Notes: generated from the sequence alone by a model not told the origin. A stretch of DNA of 42,068 nucleotides from a virus (IMGVR_UViG_2585427763_000002); one strand, 5' to 3'. Shown: positions 6,754-42,068, counted from the first letter of the stretch. Made by a program: numbers and translations.

Positions 6754-7461
6754 TTATGCCGCCTGTTTTAGTTCGTTAACTCTGATGTTCATTACCTGAA
6801 CGCATTTAGCCTGCGCCTCCTCGTTGCCAGCCATTAATTGCCAGTCACGCTGATAACGCTCGATGAGTTTTTTCTTGTCAGTTTCTGTTGACGCATAATC
6901 GCTGAAGTCTTTCAGGATTTGTTCGCAGTCAACCGATGGAGATTTCTGGTTGGTATTTTCTGGTGATGGTTTGTTATCTGATGCTGGGATTGCCCATCCC
7001 GGCAGCGATGGAGGGAGCCAGTAAAATCCTGTTCCATCCTTCAGTTTTGCCCTGTGCCACCCATGCTTTTTATCGAGAGATGTTTGTGCGAAACCTTCCT
7101 CAAGGTTATACAGATACCGACCGATTCCCCACTGAACGGCAGCACGCTTCATTGCACCTGAACGACCACCTTTGACAGCTTCTACCTGCGTGTTTTCAGC
7201 AGCATCCCATTTGGTTACCCATTCGGAATCAATCTTTATTGATATGCCGCATTCAACGCCGCCGTTGTTGGGAATATCGCGGTATTCATTGCGCCATCCT
7301 GCTTTGCCACAAACATCGTCAAGGCGTTTCATGATTGCCCGGTTCGTGACATAAGCCAGCACCATAGCCCACACCTTGCCATCGCGTGTTTTACCGCTTT
7401 GCTGTATTCGCCATTCGATATCTTCAGGGCAGAATGGCTCATCGAATTTGTTCAAATCCAT
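6754..7461 (-). CDS. Rad52/Sak-family single-strand annealing recombinase
   Basis: 235 aa; stop abuts ssb start; motifs recalled from phage Rad52/22 family (GKVWAMVLAYVTNRAIMKRLDDVCG). Confidence 0.7.
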   Translation of the reverse strand: MDLNKFDEPFCPEDIEWRIQQSGKTRDGKVWAMVLAYVTNRAIMKRLDDVCGKAGWRNEYRDIPNNGGVECGISIKIDSEWVTKWDAAENTQVEAVKGGRSGAMKRAAVQWGIGRYLYNLEEGFAQTSLDKKHGWHRAKLKDGTGFYWLPPSLPGWAIPASDNKPSPENTNQKSPSVDCEQILKDFSDYASTETDKKKLIERYQRDWQLMAGNEEAQAKCVQVMNIRVNELKQAA

Positions 7462-7560
7462 AATTCACCTCAGAATGGACATGGCCCAAGGAAATAACGC
7501 TGGTTTAATACTTCGACTCTGGACAAATTAAGGCATACCCGCATTCCTTCGCGGTCGCCA

Positions 7561-7719
7561 TTATGGCGATACCAGAGAGCTTTCTGCGTGTACATGCGTC
7601 TCTGTAACTTGCTCTCCTTCACTGTGGTTGCAAGTGACATGAATATCTCCTTCGTTACCGATTAATTCTTTCATCTGACGAATGAATTCTTCGTCTGACC
7701 AGTTATCTGTAAAACTCAT
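7561..7719 (-). CDS. Small protein in the kil position
   Basis: 52-aa ORF from ATG at 7719, ATGA-coupled to cIII stop; identity with Kil not verifiable. Confidence 0.35.
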   Translation of the reverse strand: MSFTDNWSDEEFIRQMKELIGNEGDIHVTCNHSEGEQVTETHVHAESSLVSP

Positions 7720-7886
7720 GGGCGGCCTTGTTGTTTCAAAATATCCCAAAGCTTTTCGAGCAAACTTTTCATTCTTGGTTGTTTAAAGTCTGCTCCGGTT
7801 AAAATATTTTTTCGTGAATGCTGTACCGATAAAATCGGGTTGAAAGGGCGAACCGATGCCGCCCCTGCAATAGCGAACTGTTGCAT
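7716..7886 (-). CDS. cIII: CIII-like protease inhibitor
   Basis: 56 aa, MQQFAIAGAASVRPFNPILSVQ...LLEKLWDILKQ resembles lambda CIII (MQYAIAG...) and sits two genes left of N. Confidence 0.65.
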   Translation of the reverse strand: MQQFAIAGAASVRPFNPILSVQHSRKNILTGADFKQPRMKSLLEKLWDILKQQGRP

Positions 7887-8105
7887 AGGATGCTCCTTCT
7901 GTTTGATTGCATAACGAAAACGCCTCGAGTGAAGCGTTATTGGTATGCATATAAAAAGGCCCTCACACTGGAGGGCAAAGAAGATTTCCAATAATCAGAA
8001 CAAGTCGGCTCCTGTTTAGTTACGAGCGACATTGCTCCGTGTATTCACTCGTTGGAATGAATACACAGTGCTTATTCGTCATGCATTTCAGGTATTTCTT
8101 CGTAT

Positions 8106-8261
8106 TCAACACCCCACATGTTTGTTACCCAGGATAGTTTTTTCGTACCGTTGACAAGATTCAGACCACATAAACTGACTTCCATGCGGGCGAGTTTCGA
8201 TATCTGTTATCTCTCCCGGCCGAACAAAACTGGTATTCGACTTCGTTATTTTTACTTTCAT
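8106..8261 (-). CDS. Small hypothetical ORF
   Basis: 51-aa ORF (MKVKITKSNTSFVRPGEITD...) whose ATG overlaps stop of the 8261-8518 gene (TAATG); below ORF-track size cutoff. Confidence 0.3.
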   Translation of the reverse strand: MKVKITKSNTSFVRPGEITDIETRPHGSQFMWSESCQRYEKTILGNKHVGC

Positions 8262-8518
8262 TACTCATCCCCAAGAGCTTTGCTGATTGCTGACTGTGCT
8301 TTCGATACTTCATCAGGATAATGGTCATTCCAGCTTTGCTTGTATGCCTTGTTTAGCATCGCTTGCAGAGCTTCAAGCAAATCAGGAGCTGCCTCCATCA
8401 ATCTCAAATCACCACGATGTATGGTTGTATCGTCAAACGTGACATAAACACCATCATCGTTGAATCCAGTGCCAACAACACTCCACGGCCTTTTCATTCT
8501 TTCTACGGTCATATTCAC
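8261..8518 (-). CDS. Hypothetical protein
   Basis: 85-aa ORF with RBS GAGGTGA 5 nt upstream. Confidence 0.5.
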   Translation of the reverse strand: MNMTVERMKRPWSVVGTGFNDDGVYVTFDDTTIHRGDLRLMEAAPDLLEALQAMLNKAYKQSWNDHYPDEVSKAQSAISKALGDE

Positions 8519-8564
8519 CTCTGTTGTTTATGCCAAAAATAAAGGCCGACTATGCGGCCTGAAA

Positions 8565-8987
8565 TTAATTAACCAATGATGCTGCATATTCAATTAGGAA
8601 TAACTTAGGTGCAAGCCAAATCTTCAACCATTCGAAATTGAAGGCAATAATTAAAACGCCAATAATTGAGCCAAATATAGGAGCAAATACAGTGCATATA
8701 TCGTAATAAAACGAAGATATAAAATATCCATCATTTGGACATCCATCGAAAGACGTCCATCTCTCGCCATTATTTCTTGCCGTTCTTGCAAAACTAGGAA
8801 GTTTCATTGCTGCAATTAAAAGCAACAACCCAGTCACTTGGAAAAGTGCGCTATGGACAAAACTCCATATTAGCAACTGACGAACAACATCAGGAATCTG
8901 TGACTGGCTAAATGAAACAGCCGCATCTATTCCATTACTGGCTTTTTGCAGTAGTTCTACGAGAATCTTGTTCGCTTGTTCTTCCAT
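8565..8987 (-). CDS. Membrane protein in the sieB position (candidate superinfection-exclusion protein)
   Basis: 140 aa with several hydrophobic helices; located between N and cIII where lambda/P22 carry sieB; RBS GAGGTGA. Confidence 0.5.
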   Translation of the reverse strand: MEEQANKILVELLQKASNGIDAAVSFSQSQIPDVVRQLLIWSFVHSALFQVTGLLLLIAAMKLPSFARTARNNGERWTSFDGCPNDGYFISSFYYDICTVFAPIFGSIIGVLIIAFNFEWLKIWLAPKLFLIEYAASLVN

Positions 8988-8995
8988 ATATCACC

Positions 8996-9322
8996 TCAAA
9001 TAAGTGGTTTGCTGCCTAATTTCATTTTCTGGCGACCAACACATGTCACACCCATTTCACTGCGTGGCTTGCTGTACCATGTGCGCTGATTCTTGCGCTC
9101 AATACGCTGCAGGTTGCTTTCAATCTGTTCGTGGTATTCAGCCAGCACCGTAAGGTCTATCGGATTCAGTGCGCTTTCTACTCGTGATTTCGGTTTGCGA
9201 TTCAGCGAGAGAATAGGGCGGTTAACTGGTTTTGCGCTTACCCCAACCAACAGGGGATTTGCTGCTTTCCATTGAGCCTGTTTCTCTGCGCGACGTTCGC
9301 GGCGGCGTGTTTGTGCATCCAT
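8996..9322 (-). CDS. N: Antitermination protein N, lambda type
   Basis: MDAQTRRRERRAEKQAQWKAANPLLVGVSAKPVNRPILSLNRKPKSRVESALNPIDLTVLAEYH... recalled as lambda N, including the arginine-rich boxB-binding motif. Confidence 0.9.
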   Translation of the reverse strand: MDAQTRRRERRAEKQAQWKAANPLLVGVSAKPVNRPILSLNRKPKSRVESALNPIDLTVLAEYHEQIESNLQRIERKNQRTWYSKPRSEMGVTCVGRQKMKLGSKPLI

Positions 9323-9494
9323 CTGGATTCTCCTGTCAGTTAGCTTTGGTGGTGTGGTAGGTGGGAGACCCATTTCGACCTGCTTCGGCCGACTTCAATT
9401 CGGCAATAGTTCCGCAGGCCTCGCCGCTTTACGTGCGACATATTCCCATCCATGAACCCTTCACCACACCCCAAAGCCTTCTGCTTTGAATGCT

Positions 9495-9525
9495 GCCCTT
9501 CTTCAGGGCTTAATTTTTAAGAGCG
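9495..9525 (-). promoter_or_regulatory. nutL: nutL (boxB GCCCTGAAGAAGGGC and boxA CGCTCTTA on the minus strand)
   Basis: Exact lambda nutL boxB/boxA sequences read on the reverse complement, upstream of N. Confidence 0.85.
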
Positions 9526-9529
9526 TCAC

Positions 9530-9655
9530 CTTCATGGTGGTCAGTGCGTCCTGCTGATGGCTAAATAGTACGATTTGTACTTTATCAAGTCAATACAAAA
9601 TGTTCTAACTATAATTAGTTTTTTATAACGCTTTGTATTTAATGGGTTTATATTT
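9530..9655 (-). promoter_or_regulatory. pL promoter / OL operator region
   Basis: AT-rich interval between repressor gene end and nutL containing inverted repeat ATACAAAATG...CTTTGTAT; exact operator and -10/-35 not resolved by eye. Confidence 0.45.
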
Positions 9656-9688
9656 TGGAAAAAGAAAACCCGACGCTAAGGTCGGGTT
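9655..9688 (-). terminator. Rho-independent terminator downstream of repressor gene
   Basis: Hairpin AACCCGAC-GCTAAG-GTCGGGTT followed on minus strand by TTTTCTTTTT. Confidence 0.5.
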
Positions 9689-9718
9689 ATTGTTGTGTGT
9701 TTTAGAGTTGTGAGGCTG

Positions 9719-10378
9719 TTAACTAAATGTCTCTTCAGGCCACTGGCTGGCGATAACTTTCCCTACTACGGAACAGCTATCATTGCATGGAATCATTGGA
9801 TATTGCGGGTTTAGTGGCTGTAGGAACACCTGACCGCTATCCCTGATCAGTTTCTTGAAGGTAAACTCGTCACCACCAAGTCTGGCTATGCAGAAATCAC
9901 CTGGCTCAACAGCCTGCTCAGGGTCAACGAGAATTAACATCCCGTCAGGAAAGCTTGGCTTGGATCCTGTTGGCGCGGTCATGGAATTACCTTCAACTTC
10001 AAGCCAGAACGCACAATCACTGGCTTTTTTGGTTGTGCTGACCCATCTCTCCGCATCACCTTTGGTAAAGGTTCTAAGCTCAGGCGAGAACATCCCGGCC
10101 TGAACATGAGAAAAAACAGGGTACTCATATTGTTTTTTTAACGGGGCAGATGAGTATTCGCCAACAGGTGAAAATGTACCGTCGTGGTTGAATGAGACGT
10201 TATCAATACCAAGGTATTTAAACACCACACCAATCTCGTCAAGAGATGGATGACGAGATCCGCGCAACCAGTGACCAATTCCACCCTGCGTCATACCAAG
10301 CTCTTCAGCTAACTTCTCTTGAGTTATGCCGAGTTCTTTCATTCTGGATCTAGCCAGTTCATACCATTTCATTTTCAT
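9719..10378 (-). CDS. cI: CI-type immunity repressor (HTH domain + S24 LexA-like autopeptidase domain); hybrid with lambda-like C-terminal domain
   Basis: C-terminal ~140 aa ([35 protein letters not shown]...[24 protein letters not shown]...) recalled as near-identical to lambda CI; N-terminal HTH differs (start chosen at [17 protein letters not shown]; 10453 ORF start unlikely). Confidence 0.85.
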
Positions 10379-10489
10379 ATCCTTATTATTACGCTCTGTA
10401 CTAAAACCATCCATGCACAAGATGTATTTTTTGTTTGCATTCCAAAAGTACATATCGTATTATTGTTTCATGGTTACTATGGAGGGCAT
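10379..10489. promoter_or_regulatory. OR operator region with divergent pRM/pR promoters
   Basis: 111-bp AT-rich divergent interval between cI and cro starts; operator half-sites not confidently resolved. Confidence 0.55.
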
Positions 10490-10705
10490 ATGAGCAACCT
10501 ACGAAAATATCGAGAGTCACTGAATATCTCTCAAACAACACTTGCTAAGGCGGTTGGATGCACACAGGGAGCTATCGGACATTGGGAATCTGGTCGTCGC
10601 TTCCCAGACCTTAAAACATGCCGTGCTCTTGTTGCGTGCCTAAACAAGTTAGGCGCAAAAGTCAGTCTTGATGACGTGTTCCCACCGGAACACAAAGCCG
10701 CTTAA
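10490..10705 (+). CDS. cro: Cro-like repressor (XRE-family HTH)
   Basis: 71 aa from ATG at 10490 preceded by GGAGGG; helix-turn-helix ISQTTLAKAVGCTQGAIGHWESG; divergent from cI. Confidence 0.75.
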   Translation: MSNLRKYRESLNISQTTLAKAVGCTQGAIGHWESGRRFPDLKTCRALVACLNKLGAKVSLDDVFPPEHKAA

Positions 10706-10713
10706 GACATTCC

Positions 10714-10745
10714 CGCTCTTACACATCCCAGCCCTGAAAAAGGGC
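10714..10745 (+). promoter_or_regulatory. nutR: nutR (boxA CGCTCTTA, boxB GCCCTGAAAAAGGGC)
   Basis: Exact lambda nutR boxA/boxB sequences immediately downstream of cro. Confidence 0.88.
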
Positions 10746-10821
10746 ATTACCAGAAACAAATCTCTATGGTTTTGCGTTTCTTTGCGAAGCCAACTCTATC
10801 TAATCATTAAGGAAATTATCT

Positions 10822-11103
10822 ATGGGTACTATTGCAACTAAAAGCAAGAAAGCGGCTCGCATCGAGTCAGCCTTGCTGAACAAACTGGCACTGATTGGGC
10901 AGAAGACATTCGCTCGCGCGATGGGGGTTCCTGAATACCAGGTAAGCCGATGGAAGAATGGTTTCTTCTCGCAGGTAAGCATGATGCTGGCTGTTCTGGA
11001 ATACGGAATCGAAGACGATGAAATGGCTGAATTGACTAAGCGGCTTGCCGATTACCTGACAAAAGAAAAAGCCCCGAAGAACGGCGAATTCTTCGAGGCC
11101 TGA
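10822..11103 (+). CDS. cII: CII transcriptional activator
   Basis: 93 aa; RIESALLNKLALIG...SRWK...FSMMLAVLEYG... resembles lambda CII; RBS AAGGA. Confidence 0.85.
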   Translation: MGTIATKSKKAARIESALLNKLALIGQKTFARAMGVPEYQVSRWKNGFFSQVSMMLAVLEYGIEDDEMAELTKRLADYLTKEKAPKNGEFFEA

Positions 11104-11137
11104 TGTAGAAAGACTGGATCAATCAACAGGAGTCATT

Positions 11138-11983
11138 ATGACAAATACAGCAAAAATACTCAACTTCGGCAGAGGTAACTTTGCCGAACAGGAGCTAAGA
11201 GTGGCTGATATCGATGATGGTTACACCAGATTCGCTAACGAGCTGCTGGAAGCTATCGCAAGTGCCGATTTAACCGCTCGCCAGTTGAAAGTTATGCTGG
11301 CCTACGTCCGGAAAACATATGGCTTCAATAAGAAAACAGATCGAATAGCCGATGAGCAAATTGCTCAGTTAACAGGACTGTCAAGGCAGAATGTTAACAA
11401 GGCTAAAAAAGAACTGATTTCAATGAATTGCCTGTTTATGGATGGAAATAAAATCGGTGTAAATAGGGAGGTATCTGCGTGGCAATTCAGCAAGTGTCTC
11501 CAAGTTAGCAACTTTGTCTCGAAGTTAGAGACAAAAAATGTCTCCAAATTAGAGACACTCAATGTCTCGAAGTTAGAGACACACAAAAGACATTCTTTAA
11601 AGACAAAAGAAAATATTAATAAACCCCCTATATCCCCCAAAAAAGTTTCTCAGAAGTTCGACCCGCTAGAAACAGAGTTGCCTGATTGGTTATCAGCAGA
11701 AACATGGTTGTCGTGGGTTACCTATCGCAAGGAGATAGGTAAGTCGATCAAGTCTAAGCAAAGTGTCACTCAGGCTATCAACGTTCTAAGCAGAAGCCTG
11801 GAGAAGGGATATACACCTGAAGAAATTATAAACCAGAGCATCGCCAGTGGTTGGCAGGGGATTTTTGAACCCAAGACTCCAAAGGGGAAATCTCAACCGA
11901 GGCCGCAGCAGCGAGCTATGCAGGAAAACTTTGCCGCCAAAGATTACGGGCAAACTGAAATGCCTTCATGGGCGCAGGAGTGA
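11138..11983 (+). CDS. O: Replication initiator O, lambda type
   Basis: 281 aa; N-terminus MTNTAKILNFGRGNFA... as in lambda O; iterons embedded mid-gene. Confidence 0.9.
   Translation: MTNTAKILNFGRGNFAEQELRVADIDDGYTRFANELLEAIASADLTARQLKVMLAYVRKTYGFNKKTDRIADEQIAQLTGLSRQNVNKAKKELISMNCLFMDGNKIGVNREVSAWQFSKCLQVSNFVSKLETKNVSKLETLNVSKLETHKRHSLKTKENINKPPISPKKVSQKFDPLETELPDWLSAETWLSWVTYRKEIGKSIKSKQSVTQAINVLSRSLEKGYTPEEIINQSIASGWQGIFEPKTPKGKSQPRPQQRAMQENFAAKDYGQTEMPSWAQE
11495..11581 (+). repeat. ori: Replication origin iterons (four ~19-bp direct repeats TGTCTC(C/G)AA(G/A)TTAGAGACA) followed by AT-rich stretch
   Basis: Repeats start near 11495, 11516, 11539 and 11563, then AAAAGACATTCTTTAAAGACAAAAGAAAATATTAATAAA; inside O as in ori-lambda. 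Confidence 0.8.
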
Positions 11984-11985
11984 AT

Positions 11986-12879
11986 ATGAATACGACAAAT
12001 GGTTACAATCTGGCACTGCAAAGGCAACTTGTAGACTCAAAAATCAATGACATTTCTGATCTGAAACAGAAACTTGAGTTTAGCAAAATTGGATCAGCAT
12101 CAGATGGAATGTCAGTTACCAGCACAGTGGAAGAGTGCGAGAAACACGGTAAATATACTTCCTATGAGAAATATCTGACCATCTCAGGAAAAAGAATTAC
12201 TTCAAGTAAATCTGAGTGCCCACAGTGCCTTGAGGAGAAAATTCGTAAGAAAGAGATTGAACGTGAGCAGGCAGAACAAAGAGCAAGACAATCAAAAATT
12301 GAATATTTGTTGAATTCTCTCAATATTCCAGAGAGGTTCAAAAATTGCACTCTTCAGAATTATGAGCCTGTTAACGATGATGCAAAGCGAGTTCTTAAGG
12401 TTTGCCAGGCATATGCCAGTAAGTGGCCTGAACGCCTTCAAAAAGGTGGCGGACTGGTCATGTGTGGTAAGCCTGGAACTGGAAAGAACCACCTTGCACT
12501 GGCTATCGCTAGGCACGCCATTATCGAGCATCAAAGCTCTGTGATATTTACCACTGCGTTGAAAATTGCCAGAGAGTACAAATCAACATGGTCTAAGGCC
12601 GCAACCAGAACTGAAGAAGAAGTCATTAGGCAATTTACGCATCCTGACTTGTTAATAATCGATGAGGTTGGCGTGCAGTTCGGCAGTGATGCTGAAAAGC
12701 TAATCATGTTCGAAATTATCAACACCAGATATGAATACATGAAGCCAACAATCCTGATTAGTAATCAGAGCAAAGATGAACTTTCGGCATTCATTGGTGA
12801 GCGTGTTATTGACAGGATGAATGATGGCGGAGGGTGCACTCTTGCGTTTACATGGGATAGTTACAGGAGCAGATCGTGA
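11986..12879 (+). CDS. DnaC-type helicase loader (IstB-like AAA+ ATPase), functional analogue of lambda P
   Basis: Walker A GKPGTGKNHLA, Walker B LLIIDEVG; start ATG 11986 after GGAG, 3 nt after O stop. Confidence 0.85.
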   Translation: MNTTNGYNLALQRQLVDSKINDISDLKQKLEFSKIGSASDGMSVTSTVEECEKHGKYTSYEKYLTISGKRITSSKSECPQCLEEKIRKKEIEREQAEQRARQSKIEYLLNSLNIPERFKNCTLQNYEPVNDDAKRVLKVCQAYASKWPERLQKGGGLVMCGKPGTGKNHLALAIARHAIIEHQSSVIFTTALKIAREYKSTWSKAATRTEEEVIRQFTHPDLLIIDEVGVQFGSDAEKLIMFEIINTRYEYMKPTILISNQSKDELSAFIGERVIDRMNDGGGCTLAFTWDSYRSRS

Positions 12880-35757: not shown

Positions 35758-35994
35758 GTACAAATCCTTCAGCGTATCAAACACCATCTTCCTAACAAGT
35801 TCGGACTGCTCATCAGCGATGCGTTCTGCATCGTCTCGATAGCCTGCAATTGGTGATGGTTTTGATAGCGCATCCTGAACGATTTGTAATAACTCTGAGT
35901 TCATTGACCTTCCGTTAGCCTCTGCTCTTAATTTCAATTTTTCTCTTACTTCCAAAGGCATACGGAAGTTAAAGTGCGGATCGTCTCTAGCCAT
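35743..35994 (-). CDS. mnt: Mnt repressor (Arc/MetJ ribbon-helix-helix), P22 immI type
   Basis: 83 aa, MARDDPHFNFRMPLEVREKLKLRAEANGRSMNSELLQIVQDALSKPSP... recalled as near-identical to P22 Mnt. Confidence 0.8.
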   Translation of the reverse strand: MARDDPHFNFRMPLEVREKLKLRAEANGRSMNSELLQIVQDALSKPSPIAGYRDDAERIADEQSELVRKMVFDTLKDLYKKPT

Positions 35995-36784: not shown

Positions 36785-37708
36785 ATGAAAAGTATAGCAA
36801 CAGCAGTATCTACTATCAATGTACCATTCCACGGCGCAGAGCTTTATGTTGTCAATCACAACGGTGAGCCGTACACCCCAATGAAACCTATCGTTGAGGG
36901 AATGGGTATGGATTGGGCTTCACAGTTTACAAAGTTAAAACAAAGATTTGCTAAAGGTATTGTGGAAATCGCAATACCTTCAGTTGGCGGTGTGCAGAAC
37001 ATGATTTGCCTTGCTTTACGTAAACTTAATGGCTGGTTGCAAACCATCAGTCCTAACAAAGTCCGCCCTGAAATCCGCGACAATGTAATCCAGTATCAAG
37101 AAGAGTGTGACGATGTGCTATACGAGTACTGGACTAAAGGCCATGTAGTTAACCCACGCAAAGCTAAAAAGGCGTTGCCGGGTAAAATCACCACTGAGCA
37201 GCAGGAAGCCATTAAACAACTCGTCATGAGTCGCGGTCAGTCTCTGCCAAAAGAAAAACAGGCTAAGGCGATGATCACCATGTGGTCGTCACTGAAATCC
37301 CATTTTGGATGTTCGTACAAAGAAATCAGTGAGGAGCAGTTTACCGAAGCACTATCGCTTGCAGCTCGAGTTCCACTTGAAGGTGAGTTCATTGGCAAAC
37401 AAGAGAAGAAAACCAACGAGCTTTCTGCAAAAGAAGCAAACAGCCTTGTATGGCTATGGGATTATGCCAACCGCTCACAGGCATTATTCCGCGAATTGTA
37501 TCCGGCGCTAAAACAAATTCAATCGAACTATTCAGGCAGATGCTACGACTACGGTCATGAGTTCTCGTATGTTATCGGAATGGCGAGAGATGTTTTAATT
37601 AATCACACACGAGATGTTGATATCAATGAGCCAGACGGACCAACGAATCTTTCTGCATGGATAAGACTTAAGAACAAAGAATTACCTCCTTCAGTACATA
37701 ACTACTGA
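36785..37708 (+). CDS. ant: Antirepressor (Ant-like)
   Basis: 307 aa downstream of arc-like gene as in P22 immI; followed by strong terminator. Confidence 0.65.
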   Translation: MKSIATAVSTINVPFHGAELYVVNHNGEPYTPMKPIVEGMGMDWASQFTKLKQRFAKGIVEIAIPSVGGVQNMICLALRKLNGWLQTISPNKVRPEIRDNVIQYQEECDDVLYEYWTKGHVVNPRKAKKALPGKITTEQQEAIKQLVMSRGQSLPKEKQAKAMITMWSSLKSHFGCSYKEISEEQFTEALSLAARVPLEGEFIGKQEKKTNELSAKEANSLVWLWDYANRSQALFRELYPALKQIQSNYSGRCYDYGHEFSYVIGMARDVLINHTRDVDINEPDGPTNLSAWIRLKNKELPPSVHNY

Positions 37709-37808: not shown

Positions 37809-39881
37809 ATGACAGACATTACAGCCAATGTTGTAGTGAGTATGCCTTCGCAACTCTTCACTATGGCGCGTTCTTTTAAAGCCGTAGCCAATGGCAAAAT
37901 TTATATCGGTAAAATTGACACTGACCCGGTAAATCCTGAAAACCAGATTCAGGTTTATGTGGAGAACGAAGATGGTTCTCACGTTCCTGTTGCACAGCCA
38001 ATCATCATTAACGCTGCTGGTTACCCGGTATATAACGGACAGATTGCCAAGTTCGTAACTGTGCAAGGCCATTCTATGGCTGTTTATGATGCATACGGTG
38101 TGCAGCAGTTCTATTTTCCTAATGTGCTGAAGTATGACCCGGATCAGTTGCGACAGCAATTATTAAACCCTGACACTGGCCTAGGAGATGCGCTTGTTAT
38201 TGTTAAACAGCCATATGCTGGTTCTGTACCTATTACTCAACATCAGCACAACACCTATCTCCTTACCCCTTACCACTTCGCAGCAAAGGGAGATGGTATT
38301 ACAGATGACACTCTTGCCCTAAACCGCTGGTCCAATTGCGGAGCTAAGGTACTCTATTGGCCAGCAGGAAAATATCTGGTGAGCCCTACAAATGGTGTTT
38401 CTCTGGATATGGATAACTACCATACAGGGGATTCCGCACTAACGGCGTGCGTAACCGTTCCCTATGGCGTGAAAATTTATACGGCTGGGACAGAAACCCA
38501 GTTATGCGTGAAGGATGCTGACTCAGCATCGACCGTAGGTCTGGCCGTTAGCTACCCGGAGTCAAGTTATTCCCAGGGAGAAACCGACATCGGAAAATTC
38601 ATGATTCGCCTGGAAAACGGAAATGGTCGGTACGGTATTCTTACTCCACTCAGGGGGGAAATGTTCACTGCGCACCGGGCGAAGTTCAAATTAGGAGCGC
38701 ATTTCGGTCCTCAACAGGGGCGTGATGACCTGACGGTGCTACAGTATTCGTGGGTAAATGGCATGCTGATTGGCGACGCTTTTAGCGGCTCAGTGCATGT
38801 CACTGGATACGGCAGCTATAACGTACAGCAGGTTGAAGGTACGCAATTCCAGTGCGTGGCCGTTAAGATGAAGTCCGTTCGAGGTAACGTAGGTGTAGAC
38901 ATCAGATTCAACACAAACAACTGGTGGAAGTTTGTCGAACTGAGTGACGGCGTTGAAGGGTTTGTTGTCAAGGACAGCGAAGGGCTTGGGGCATTTGTTG
39001 GAATCGACCTAACCAACCCAGCCAGCGAGCCAGGTGGATTTATCGATAACGTACACGTCAACGTTAAGCAAAACGGAGTACGAGCCAGAAACAGGCCATC
39101 CCTGCAAATCGGAAACATTGAAGTCTATAAAAGTGATGGATTTGCCACTGACCTTGTTTACGATGCGGTGCTTCTGGTTGACTGCCAGGAAGTGACTATC
39201 AACTCTATTCACGCAATCGTCGGCAACTCAATCACAAATGCTCAGTCAGTAGTTAACTCGACAAACAGCACATTCCGCCTGAACTCATACTTTGCGCAAA
39301 ACATCAGGTTCGTCGATTTTGTGGTTAATAGCCCTGACTGCTATGTCGGAGAGGGGACAATTAACCAGGTCGAGGCAGTTCACTCACTTTCTGGATCACA
39401 AAGCAACGACTTCCACGGTAGTGATGTTCTGGTTAGATCCTACAGAAACAACGTTCGCCCACTTTACGCAGTGATGGATTCCGCTTTCAACAGGGCAAGG
39501 GCGAGGTTTCCACAAAATACAAGCCTCCAGGTGAGAACCTTTCTCGACTACACTGTGGCAGCAGCTGGGACTTTAACAATAGAACCAAGGCTTGACCCAT
39601 CCAGGTACTACATCATCATGAGTGCTGGTACAGGTGCCTTCACCTATTCAATTGAGCTGGATAAAGTGTCTGCCGTAGTTGGTGATATTGTTTACATAAA
39701 GATAGCCGGGTCATCATCTGCTAACCCAACAGTTTTGGTTAAAAATGGTATTGGTGGGACAACGCTCAGCACATTCAATAATATCGGTCCGATTCGTTTG
39801 AATTGTGCTTACAGATTTAATGAGTCAGGTAACTGGGTGGCCTACTACATTACCCAAAGCGTTGAAACCACTTATGGCTAA
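37809..39881 (+). CDS. Tailspike protein (P22 gp9-type head-binding domain with a different receptor-binding domain)
   Basis: 690 aa; N-terminus [59 protein letters not shown]... recalled from P22 tailspike; remainder diverges. Confidence 0.85.
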
Positions 39882-40247
39882 TAGTCATTATCAATATCCT
39901 GCAGATGTGACCTAACGACAAGCGTCGCCACGATGACAACCACGGAAAGGATGCCGATAACCCACCACATAACTTACCCGCGCAAAATGAATGGACAAAA
40001 ATCATCCGCAGATTAACCCTAAGCTTTGCATATTTTTTGAAGATGTGACTGTTGTGTGGCAAAAAATTAGCGCAAGAGGACAAAAAATCACCTTGCGCTA
40101 ATGCTCTGTTACAGGTCACTAATACCATCTAAGTGGTTGATTCATAGTGACTGGATATGTTGTGTTTTGTAGCATTATGTAGTCTATTTTTTAGACTACA
40201 GATGCTGTAACACATTGATATTAATGGTTTTTAATGTTTCACGTTCA

Positions 40248-40262
40248 GCTTTTTTATACTAA
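40248..40262. other. attR: attR common core (O), junction P-O-B'
   Basis: GCTTTTTTATACTAA preceded by lambda P-arm-like sequence (CTGTTACAGGTCACTAATACCATCTAAGT...) and followed by CTTGAGCG (B'). Confidence 0.9.
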
Positions 40263-40352
40263 CTTGAGCGAAACGGGAAGGTAAAAAGACAAAAAGTTGT
40301 TTTTAATACCTTTAAGTGATACCAGATGGCATTGCGCCATCTGGCAGAGTGA

Positions 40353-40829
40353 TTAACTAAACATCGCAGTAATCGAGGCACTCGCCAGAGAGTGAAAATG
40401 AACGTTAAACCCGACCATCGCGCCGCTGGCACCTTCATCGACATCAATACGTTCTACATCCAGCGCGTGAACGGTAAAAATGTAGCGATGGGTTTCGCCT
40501 TTCGGCGGCGCTGCGCCATCGTACCCGGTTTTACCAAAGTCGGTACGCGTCTGCAAAACGCCGTCTGGCATAGCTACCAGACCAGAGCCAAACCCTTGCG
40601 GTAATACGCGGGTATCAGCGGGTAAATTAACAACTACCCAGTGCCACCAGCCGGAGCCGGTTGGCGCATCCGGGTCATAGCAGGTGACAACAAAACTTTT
40701 CGTTCCCACAGGAACATCATCCCACGCCAGATGCGGTGAAATATTATCGCCATCGTAACCCATGCCGTTAAAGACATGACGATGCGGCAGCTTATCGCCA
40801 TCGCGCAGATCGTTACTGATGAGTTTCAT
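40353..40829 (-). CDS. ybhB: YbhB (PEBP/Raf-kinase-inhibitor-like protein); host gene right of attB-lambda
   Basis: 158 aa recalled as E. coli YbhB; adjacent to B' arm. Confidence 0.85.
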   Translation of the reverse strand: MKLISNDLRDGDKLPHRHVFNGMGYDGDNISPHLAWDDVPVGTKSFVVTCYDPDAPTGSGWWHWVVVNLPADTRVLPQGFGSGLVAMPDGVLQTRTDFGKTGYDGAAPPKGETHRYIFTVHALDVERIDVDEGASGAMVGFNVHFHSLASASITAMFS

Positions 40830-40839
40830 TAGAATGCCT

Positions 40840-42068
40840 CCGGGAAACCTCGGCCTTCAGACCGGGGAGGAAAGGAGGCGGTTTTCCGACTAACTGTACT
40901 TTGCATAATCACATTTTCCTCTTTAGTATGTGAACACATGAAACGCGCATATAAATACCGGTTTTACCCGACAACTGAGCAGGCTGAGCTTTTAGCTCAG
41001 ACGTTTGGCTGTGTGCGCTTCGTCTACAATTCCATCCTTCGTTGGCGTACCGATGCGTACTACGAGCGAAAAGAAAAGATCGGTTATCTACAGGCCAACG
41101 CTCGCCTTACGGCGCTCAAAAAAGAGCCTGAATACATATGGCTGAATGATGTTTCCTGCGTTCCCCTCCAGCAGTCGTTGCGCCACCAACAAGCCGCCTT
41201 TGCTAACTTCTTTGCCGGACGAGCTGCATATCCGGCTTTCAAAAGCAAACGGCACAAACAGGTGGCTGAGTTCACTGCCAGCGCGTTTAAACACCGTGAC
41301 GGCGAGTTGTATATAGCAAAGAGCAAGTCGCCGCTGGATGTTCGCTGGAGTCGAGAATTACCATCTGCGCCGTCAACCGTTACCATTTCCAGAGATAGCG
41401 CTGGCAGGTACTTTGTTTCCTGCCTGTGTGAGTTTGAACCTGTATCAATGCCTGTTACCGCTAAAACGGTCGGCATTGATGTGGGCTTAAAAGATTTATT
41501 CGTCACCGATACCGGATTCAAAACCGACAATCCCCGCCACACCGCTAAATATGCGAAGCGATTAACGCTGCTACAGCGACGTTTAAGCAGGAAGCAAAAA
41601 GGCTCAAGAAACCGTATTAAAGCCCGCTTAAAGGTCGCCCGACTCCACGCGAAAATCGCCGATTGCCGGATGGACAATCTGCACAAGTTGTCCCGCAAAC
41701 TGATTAACGAAAACCAAGTTGTTTGCGTCGAATCCCTCAAGGTGAAAAACATGATCCGCAACCCGAAGCTGTCTAAAGCAATAGCTGACGCAGGCTGGAG
41801 CGAACTTGTTCGCCAGCTCCAGTACAAAGGCAAATGGGCCGGGCGGTCAGTGGTCGCCATTGACCAGTATTTACCGTCCTCAAAATGCTGTAGTTGCTGC
41901 GGTTTCACCATGCAAAAAATGCCTCTTAATGTTCGTAAATGGCACTGCCCTGAATGCGGCGCAGACCATGATCGCGACATTAACGCGGCACGTAATATTA
42001 AAGCTGCCGGGCTGGCAGTGTTAGCCCACGGAGAGCCTGTAAACCCTGAATCGCAGCACGCGGCTTAG
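40840..42068 (+). mobile_element. tnpB-only IS200/IS605-family element (left end and tnpB; right end lies beyond window)
   Basis: Imperfect palindromes (CCTCCGGGAAACCTCGGCC...CCGGGGAGG) upstream of tnpB, consistent with a subterminal hairpin; no tnpA in window. Confidence 0.45.
40938..42068 (+). CDS. tnpB: TnpB (IS200/IS605-family OrfB, RuvC-like RNA-guided endonuclease)
   Basis: 376 aa; C-terminal zinc finger CCSCCG...CPECG; typical N-terminus MKRAYKYRFYPTTEQAELLAQTFGCVRFVYNS; stop at window end. Confidence 0.85.
   Translation: MKRAYKYRFYPTTEQAELLAQTFGCVRFVYNSILRWRTDAYYERKEKIGYLQANARLTALKKEPEYIWLNDVSCVPLQQSLRHQQAAFANFFAGRAAYPAFKSKRHKQVAEFTASAFKHRDGELYIAKSKSPLDVRWSRELPSAPSTVTISRDSAGRYFVSCLCEFEPVSMPVTAKTVGIDVGLKDLFVTDTGFKTDNPRHTAKYAKRLTLLQRRLSRKQKGSRNRIKARLKVARLHAKIADCRMDNLHKLSRKLINENQVVCVESLKVKNMIRNPKLSKAIADAGWSELVRQLQYKGKWAGRSVVAIDQYLPSSKCCSCCGFTMQKMPLNVRKWHCPECGADHDRDINAARNIKAAGLAVLAHGEPVNPESQHAA

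Follow-up and report, generated by a model that had tools for sequence, protein, structure and literature searches.

Which immunity specificity is conferred by a phage repressor whose two halves resemble different phages, and is such a hybrid new? The question is raised by a stretch of DNA of 42,068 nt from the virus IMGVR_UViG_2585427763_000002 (the window, in its full length), within which the region of interest extends from the N gene to cro. A sequence-only reading of this region had described a repressor with a lambda-like C-terminal domain on a foreign DNA-binding domain, an equally foreign Cro and no rexAB genes, and had taken the foreign domain and Cro to imply a distinct immunity. That description is accurate, and what it describes is an immunity module already known and widespread, in which the accessory slot is empty. 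We conclude, at a probability of about 0.9, that the region is the lysis–lysogeny switch of a P22/HK620-like Escherichia coli prophage with the known VT2-Sakai/Nil2 immunity specificity (cI2c/cro4; Smith et al. 2012).

The best overall matches of the window are vB_EcoP-720R6, vB_EcoP-683R2, CUS-3 and HK620, all of them mosaic, with about 96–97% identity over 33–43% of the first 25 kb, and the stretch is a P22/HK620-like E. coli prophage. It appears to hold the whole prophage, about 39 kb, and both ends (the 1–2489 side and the 37809–42068 side) are probably host DNA. A candidate integrase ORF at 1419–2489 is suggested by the annotations of megablast matches, a long ORF occupies 37809–39881 near the right end, and no tRNA gene is present in the window.

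The repressor gene cI lies on the minus strand at 9719–10372 and encodes 217 amino acids (MKWYEL...). Its ORF ends at 9719, and the likely start, assigned by analogy, is the ATG at 10372, which is the annotated cI start in Nil2 and vB_EcoP-683R2 and is preceded by AAGGA seven nucleotides upstream. The frame remains open upstream to an ATG at 10453 (244 aa), and the annotation of the gene is inconsistent between GenBank records, some relatives (E212, AP005153) being annotated with a longer cI of 231 aa that starts inside OR. The 244-aa ORF was rejected because its start would fall inside OR1 and pR. Residues 1–81 (10130..10372) comprise a helix-turn-helix (HTH) domain and linker of the VT2-Sakai/Nil2 type (Pfam HTH_3, E=8e-11, matching residues 11–58 in the numbering of a 219-aa query), and residues 82–217 with the stop codon (9719..10129) form a lambda-type module (Pfam Peptidase_S24, E=9e-29). 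The latter aligns without a gap to residues 101–236 of lambda CI, the match beginning at lambda Tyr101, and 133 of the 136 residues are identical; the three exceptions in lambda numbering are S139C, E217D and G236S. The roughly 140 lambda-like residues originally proposed thus come to exactly 136. The best solved structure for the protein is the lambda repressor itself (PDB 3bdn, E=1e-96), with a match that is near-perfect through the C-terminal part and poor before it. The self-cleavage site Ala92-Gly93 and the catalytic dyad Ser130/Lys173 are intact and align with A111-G112, S149 and K192 of lambda, and with its N-terminal HTH and its S24 domain bearing both site and dyad, this CI fits the LexA/CI-type self-cleaving phage repressors.

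At the DNA level, positions 9725–10129 are 93.8% identical to lambda 37233–37637 over 405 nt without a gap, and the homology breaks off abruptly at 10129. In a codon-guided comparison, the last 136 codons share 93% of nucleotides and 98% of amino acids with lambda, and the first 81 codons share 39% and 22%, respectively. The junction at 10129/10130 corresponds to lambda residues 100/101 and thus to the inter-domain linker; the Ala-Gly cleavage site comes 10 residues later. One could attribute this pattern to a lambda-like ancestor in which no recombination took place and the N-terminal domain, selected for a new specificity, merely evolved far faster than the C-terminal one, and the N-terminal domain is indeed still a distant homologue of its lambda counterpart (PDB 1lli, E=7e-4), parts of the HTH being similar. 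However, selection at the protein level cannot erase synonymous similarity on one side only, and identity at third codon positions steps from 31%, which is about random, to 82% at codon 81/82, the synonymous signal being lost within a few codons where the DNA homology halts. The codon comparison effectively refutes an origin by rate variation, which we consider to have next to no chance of being correct. That the synonymous signal vanishes so sharply argues that the two halves of cI have different histories; judged from this alignment, the gene contains a true mosaic junction, in agreement with the recombination event proposed inside cI.

The second regulator of the switch is likewise unlike that of lambda. 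The cro gene (10490–10705, plus strand) encodes 71 amino acids with an all-helical HTH of the XRE type (Pfam HTH_3, E=4e-12; best solved relative 28tn, E=4.5e-17), as had been supposed, and a tblastn search with lambda Cro gave no match within the window. The recognition helix of Cro, TQGAIGHW, resembles that of CI, TQGGIGHW, and Cro and the CI N-terminal domain share 35% identity (E=5e-13), a likeness that would fit two proteins reading one operator set.

Such a set can be derived from the sequence. Six putative 17-bp operators that follow the pattern A(G/T/A)TAC-N5-GTA(C/T)T are arranged as three sites at OL (9566..9640) and three at OR (10387..10462): OL1 at 9566–9582 (TAGTACGATTTGTACTT), OL2 at 9591–9607 (CAATACAAAATGTTCTA), OL3 at 9624–9640 (TATAACGCTTTGTATTT), OR3 at 10387–10403 (TATTACGCTCTGTACTA), OR2 at 10413–10429 (ATGCACAAGATGTATTT) and OR1 at 10446–10462 (AAGTACATATCGTATTA). 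A palindrome search by itself yielded OL1 only, and the other five sites emerged from the comparison of half-sites. The consensus AGTAC-N5-GTACT with up to two mismatches occurs 16 times in the whole window compared with 9.4 expected, which is barely an enrichment, and at no more than one mismatch three of the four matches fall in OL and OR. The sites are unlike the operators of lambda (TATCACCGC...), and neither OL nor OR has DNA homology to its lambda equivalent. OL1 overlaps pL (9565..9593, minus strand), for which a promoter scan gives a -35 element TTGACT at 9593..9588, a 17-nt spacer and a -10 element TACTAT at 9570..9565; alignment to the leader of the lambda pL transcript suggests a +1 position near 9558. 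OR1 overlaps pR (10435..10463, plus strand), which by direct reading has the elements TTGCAT and TATTAT separated by 17 nt; the promoter scan shifts pR one base further left with an 18-nt spacer. A candidate pRM on the minus strand between OR2 and OR3, with ATGGAT at 10413..10408 and TAATAA at 10386..10381, is placed by analogy with the annotation of AP005153.

The operators lead directly to the immunity type. The 2003 annotation of AP005153 marks putative operators with which all six sites align, and OR1–OR3 and OL1 coincide with the 17-mers published for VT2-Sa (OR1 AAGTACATATTGTATTT, OR2 ATGCACAATGTGTATTT, OR3 TATTACGCTCTGTACTG and OL1 TAGTACGATATGTACTT; Table S1 of PMC10742460), OL1 being off by one spacer base. 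The proteins point in the same direction. The N-terminal 81 residues are 95% identical to the repressors of Nil2 (77 of 81), the Stx1-converting phage, Stx2 phage II and 2851, 93.8% identical to that of VT2-Sakai and 98.8% identical to those of phi458 and 720R6; the next-best family, from Salmonella phages, reaches 52%. Cro is identical to Nil2 Cro in all 71 positions. vB_EcoP-683R2 and Louie match the DNA over 9374–10720 at 99.3% and 99.2% identity, and cI–cro is 92.7–92.8% identical to its counterparts in Nil2, the Stx1-converting phage, Stx2 phage II, 2851 and phages of the PA series. In sum, the CI DNA-binding domain, the Cro and the OL/OR operators that define the VT2-Sakai/Nil2 type (cI2c/cro4) are all present, and of the features of imm lambda only the CI C-terminal domain is found, the N-terminal domain, the operators and a lambda-family Cro being absent. 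The distinct specificity first proposed would thus hold with respect to lambda only, and the implied novelty is not upheld: since the N-terminal domain, Cro and operators are of the VT2-Sakai type, the N-terminal domain belongs to a well-known immunity type, the very outcome that the sequence-only reading had named as speaking against its own view.

The hybrid nature of the repressor is likewise no novelty, as it characterises a published immunity type that is commonly found in prophages of E. coli. In PMC3430580, Smith et al. (2012) described a common carboxy terminus and unique amino termini for lambda CI and the CI2c variants, the unique amino-terminal end of lambda implying different DNA binding. 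For the CI proteins of VT2-Sa and lambda, Fattah et al. (2000; cited in PMC10742460) noted that similarity is high in the C-terminal and low in the N-terminal part. The same citation credits these authors with the observation that the VT2-Sa and lambda phages show cross-immunity, and lambda CI has been measured to bind VT2-Sa operators weakly, in the micromolar range (PMC10742460). Because of these two reports, full heteroimmunity of the present prophage to lambda is not certain.

Whether the allele might instead have drifted from the VT2-Sakai type of the Stx phages into a new sub-specificity, heteroimmune to the parent type, deserves consideration in view of its divergence. Not only is cI–cro just 92.7% identical to Nil2, but the N-terminal domain differs by four substitutions (S45D, D46E, I59V and V78L), and OL overall is 77% identical; spacer bases differ in OR1, OR2, OL1 and OL2, those of OR2, OL1 and OL2 being central, and one flanking base differs in OL3. 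On the other hand, the substitutions all lie outside the HTH, whose residues are identical to those of Nil2, Cro is unchanged, and all twelve operator half-sites are kept in Nil2 and VT2-Sakai apart from the one flanking base in OL3. A separate sub-specificity is therefore improbable, and the VT2-Sakai/Nil2 specificity remains the preferred assignment, although the N-terminal substitutions, the spacers of OR2, OL1 and OL2, the OL3 flanking base and changes in the -35 region of pR could have altered individual affinities.

The non-lambda immunity determinants form two separate patches: OL occupies about 9565–9650, and a second patch at 10130–10705 contains the N-terminal domain, OR and cro. They are set in lambda-like scaffolding (9021–10745) consisting of the N/nutL/pL leader (85.6% identity), the terminator (89%), the C-terminal domain (93.8%) and nutR–cII (68.8%). 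The left border is formed by a lambda-type antiterminator gene N (8996..9322, minus strand; 108 aa from MDAQTRRRE; Pfam N36, E=2e-26), whose product is 91.6% identical to lambda N by tblastn. The block homologous to the lambda N–nutL–pL leader, 9021–9559, includes a lambda-type nutL at 9495..9525 on the minus strand, recognised by direct reading and folding, with boxA CGCTCTTAA / CGCUCUUAA at 9525..9517 and the boxB hairpin GCCCTGAAGAAGGGC / GCCCUGAAGAAGGGC at 9509..9495. On the other side, the lambda-type nutR (10714..10745, plus strand) was identified by sequence and fold, with boxA CGCUCUUAC at 10714–10722 and boxB GCCCUGAAAAAGGGC at 10731–10745, and lies within the block 10712–11298 that is 68.8% identical to lambda. 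It is followed by cII (10822–11103, plus strand). The TTGC-N6-TTGC motif to which CII binds at lambda pRE is found on the minus strand at 10834–10847 inside cII codons 5–9, at the same position as in lambda, and marks a candidate pRE; a second copy is found on the plus strand at 10772–10785 in the cro–cII spacer. Further downstream, three tandem 24-bp repeats at 11515–11586 inside an O-like replication gene encode VSKLET repeats and are probably origin iterons, and the gene that follows encodes a DnaC-like helicase loader, not lambda P. Directly downstream of N, a gene on the minus strand (8565–8987) encodes a predicted membrane protein of 140 aa that has no Pfam match and belongs to PHROG 3054 (unknown function); its position is one where lambdoid phages often have exclusion genes.

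A lambda-like N, nutL, pL leader and terminator around the foreign patches might suggest a recent origin of the hybrid within this prophage lineage, from recombination of a phage of lambda immunity with one of the VT2-Sakai type, the more so as the N gene of the Stx phages is of a different type. The distribution of the junction argues strongly against such a recent origin. Nil2 and VT2-Sakai share both the junction and the C-terminal domain, and this boundary is met again, immediately ahead of (Y/F)(E/N)YP(V/F)FSHVQAGMF, in the Salmonella phages S137 and 103203_sal5, whose C-terminal domains are 79–82% identical and whose N-terminal domains belong to other types or have diverged. Moreover, the C-terminal coding regions of this prophage, of Nil2/VT2-Sakai and of lambda differ pairwise at 28–35 of 411 nt (7–8.5%), almost all differences being synonymous, so the present allele is not a recent copy of that of lambda. 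Among the relatives compared, no phage of lambda immunity was seen with C-terminal-domain DNA more than 99% identical to that of this prophage. A recent hybrid is thus very improbable. Since the three C-terminal alleles are roughly equidistant, the junction, by this measure, is old; it did not arise in this phage and is common to all members of the immunity type. The C-terminal module itself is old, common to two immunity types and under strong purifying selection, and was not recently taken from lambda.

Among the E. coli phages, only N-terminal domains of the lambda and VT2-Sakai types were found on C-terminal domains more than 95% lambda-like, and no third type was seen: the CI of E212 is of the VT2-Sakai type and that of PhiR5_2 of the lambda type, and other N-terminal domains are joined only to the Salmonella C-terminal domains of 79–82% identity. 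Between the cI genes of this prophage and Nil2, the C-terminal domain shows 30 synonymous-codon and five non-synonymous-codon differences, and the N-terminal domain with the linker shows seven and eight. Small as these numbers are, they suggest that the DNA-binding half of CI is under much weaker constraint or under diversifying selection. In evolutionary terms, the repressor is an old domain-swap mosaic. The parts that determine specificity (OL on the one hand, OR and cro together with the N-terminal domain on the other) are of one type and are seated in scaffolding of the lambda type, to which N, nutL, the pL leader, terminator, C-terminal domain and nutR belong.

What, then, has become of the genes that follow cI in lambda? 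Neither RexA nor RexB of lambda gave a tblastn match at E<=1 in the window, and the absence of both genes downstream of cI is in line with the original observation. Nor was sieB found by tblastn anywhere in the stretch. Between N and cI (9374–9718) there is no ORF of more than 44 aa, and a search of 7000–12500 against Rfam at a permissive threshold gave no match to a small RNA in the cI–N gap. The cI transcript meets an intrinsic terminator at 9657..9688 on the minus strand, identified by a terminator scan and folding, with a stem-loop at 9688..9667 (-12.4 kcal/mol, z=-3.6) and the T-tract TTTTCTTTTT at 9666..9657; because the accessory-gene slot, occupied by rexAB in lambda, is empty, the transcript would stop 30 nt after the cI stop codon. 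OL, pL and the lambda-type nutL follow, so the order of elements had been read correctly, at or near the positions first given. The 36-nt terminator element is 89% identical to lambda 35799–35834, where the hairpin abuts the rexB stop codon, and its stem differs from that of lambda by a compensatory change of a G-C to an A-U pair. The arrangement looks like a lambda cI operon from which the cargo has gone and the terminator has been kept. Among the loci compared, this terminator is present only in lambda and 683R2 besides the prophage itself, and the same slot in other relatives is filled by unrelated genes, orf22 in Nil2 and VT2-Sakai and other hypothetical proteins in E212, PhiR5_2, S137 and 103203_sal5. 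According to Degnan et al. (2007), as cited in PMC8585504, the cI–N interval is a hotspot of mosaic diversity that is home to rexAB, bstA and others. At a query coverage of at least 80%, 204 of 5,426 complete E. coli genomes have the full rex-less layout. The empty slot between cI and OL, with its lambda-type terminator, provides a clean example of the boundaries of an accessory slot that holds rexAB, orf22, bstA or other cargo in relatives.

How the switch would operate can be projected from lambda biology as far as binding, cooperativity, cleavage and the immunity phenotype are concerned; the anatomy, the homologies, the junction and the conservation of the operators onto which they are projected were observed directly. 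CI dimers would bind the six 17-bp operators via the XRE-type HTH. The lambda-type C-terminal module should provide dimerisation as well as pairwise and long-range cooperativity, so that CI would occupy OL1 and OL2 as well as OR1 and OR2 cooperatively and shut pL and pR. Autoregulation of pRM is probable, and cI mRNA from this promoter may have, like that of lambda, no leader or hardly any. Upon SOS induction, RecA-stimulated self-cleavage at Ala92-Gly93 by Ser130/Lys173 would separate the CI domains, whereupon Cro would bind the same operators with its near-identical recognition helix, and N would act at the lambda-type nutL and nutR.

Functional cross-talk between repressors with the lambda C-terminal domain is a possibility that has been raised in the literature. 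Because the oligomerisation and cleavage module is almost identical in both repressors, the CI described here and lambda CI could combine into mixed dimers or into cooperative complexes of both in double lysogens of lambda and VT2-Sakai immunity, thereby coupling the two switches or mutually weakening them; we regard this as a tentative idea, more doubtful than probable. Cooperative binding of this kind was raised in the discussion of PMC10742460. If such complexes form, they could underlie the 'cross immunity' of Fattah et al. (2000), or give rise to dominant-negative anti-immunity. The region leaves current understanding unchanged, and its main value is one of annotation: it places the prophage in a known immunity group common to several Shiga-toxin phages, and from this assignment one would expect superinfection immunity, and perhaps repressor cross-talk, where a harmless prophage and an Stx phage meet in one host.

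Among the closest known systems, vB_EcoP-683R2, Louie, Dewey, vB_EcoP-720R6 and phi458 carry essentially the same allele in the same rex-less layout (97.9–99.3% over 9374–10720) and differ by only a few substitutions, such as L78V in 683R2; the terminator region of 683R2 is identical to that of the prophage. With VT2-Sakai, Nil2, the Stx1-converting phage, Stx2 phage II and 2851 the prophage has in common the architecture of CI, the junction, the six operators and the layout of pL and pR, at a divergence of about 7% of nucleotides across cI–cro. Whereas these Stx phages have an extra ORF between cI and OL (orf22, 173 aa), the prophage has the terminator alone, and its N gene and nutL are lambda-type instead of HK97-like; the carrier is a P22/HK620-like podovirus and not an Stx phage. 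Furthermore, the cI of VT2-Sakai (AP000363) contains an in-frame amber codon (Q28 to stop), already noted previously (PMC3430580), which accounts for its truncated GenBank annotation, whereas the cI of this prophage is intact. Lambda resembles the prophage in the 136 C-terminal residues of CI, the terminator, boxA and boxB of nutL and nutR, the N protein and the logic of three plus three operators. It differs in the N-terminal domain of CI, which in the prophage is only 22% identical and lacks the N-terminal arm of lambda, in the unrelated sequences of the operators, in a Cro that here belongs to the XRE all-helical fold family and not to the lambda Cro family, and in the possession of rexA and rexB. 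Finally, engineered hybrid repressors in which a heterologous N-terminal domain is fused to the lambda C-terminal domain have been used in studies of cooperativity. These constructs likewise pair a foreign HTH with the oligomerisation and cleavage module of lambda, but the repressor described here is a natural one, fused in the linker at lambda residues 100/101.
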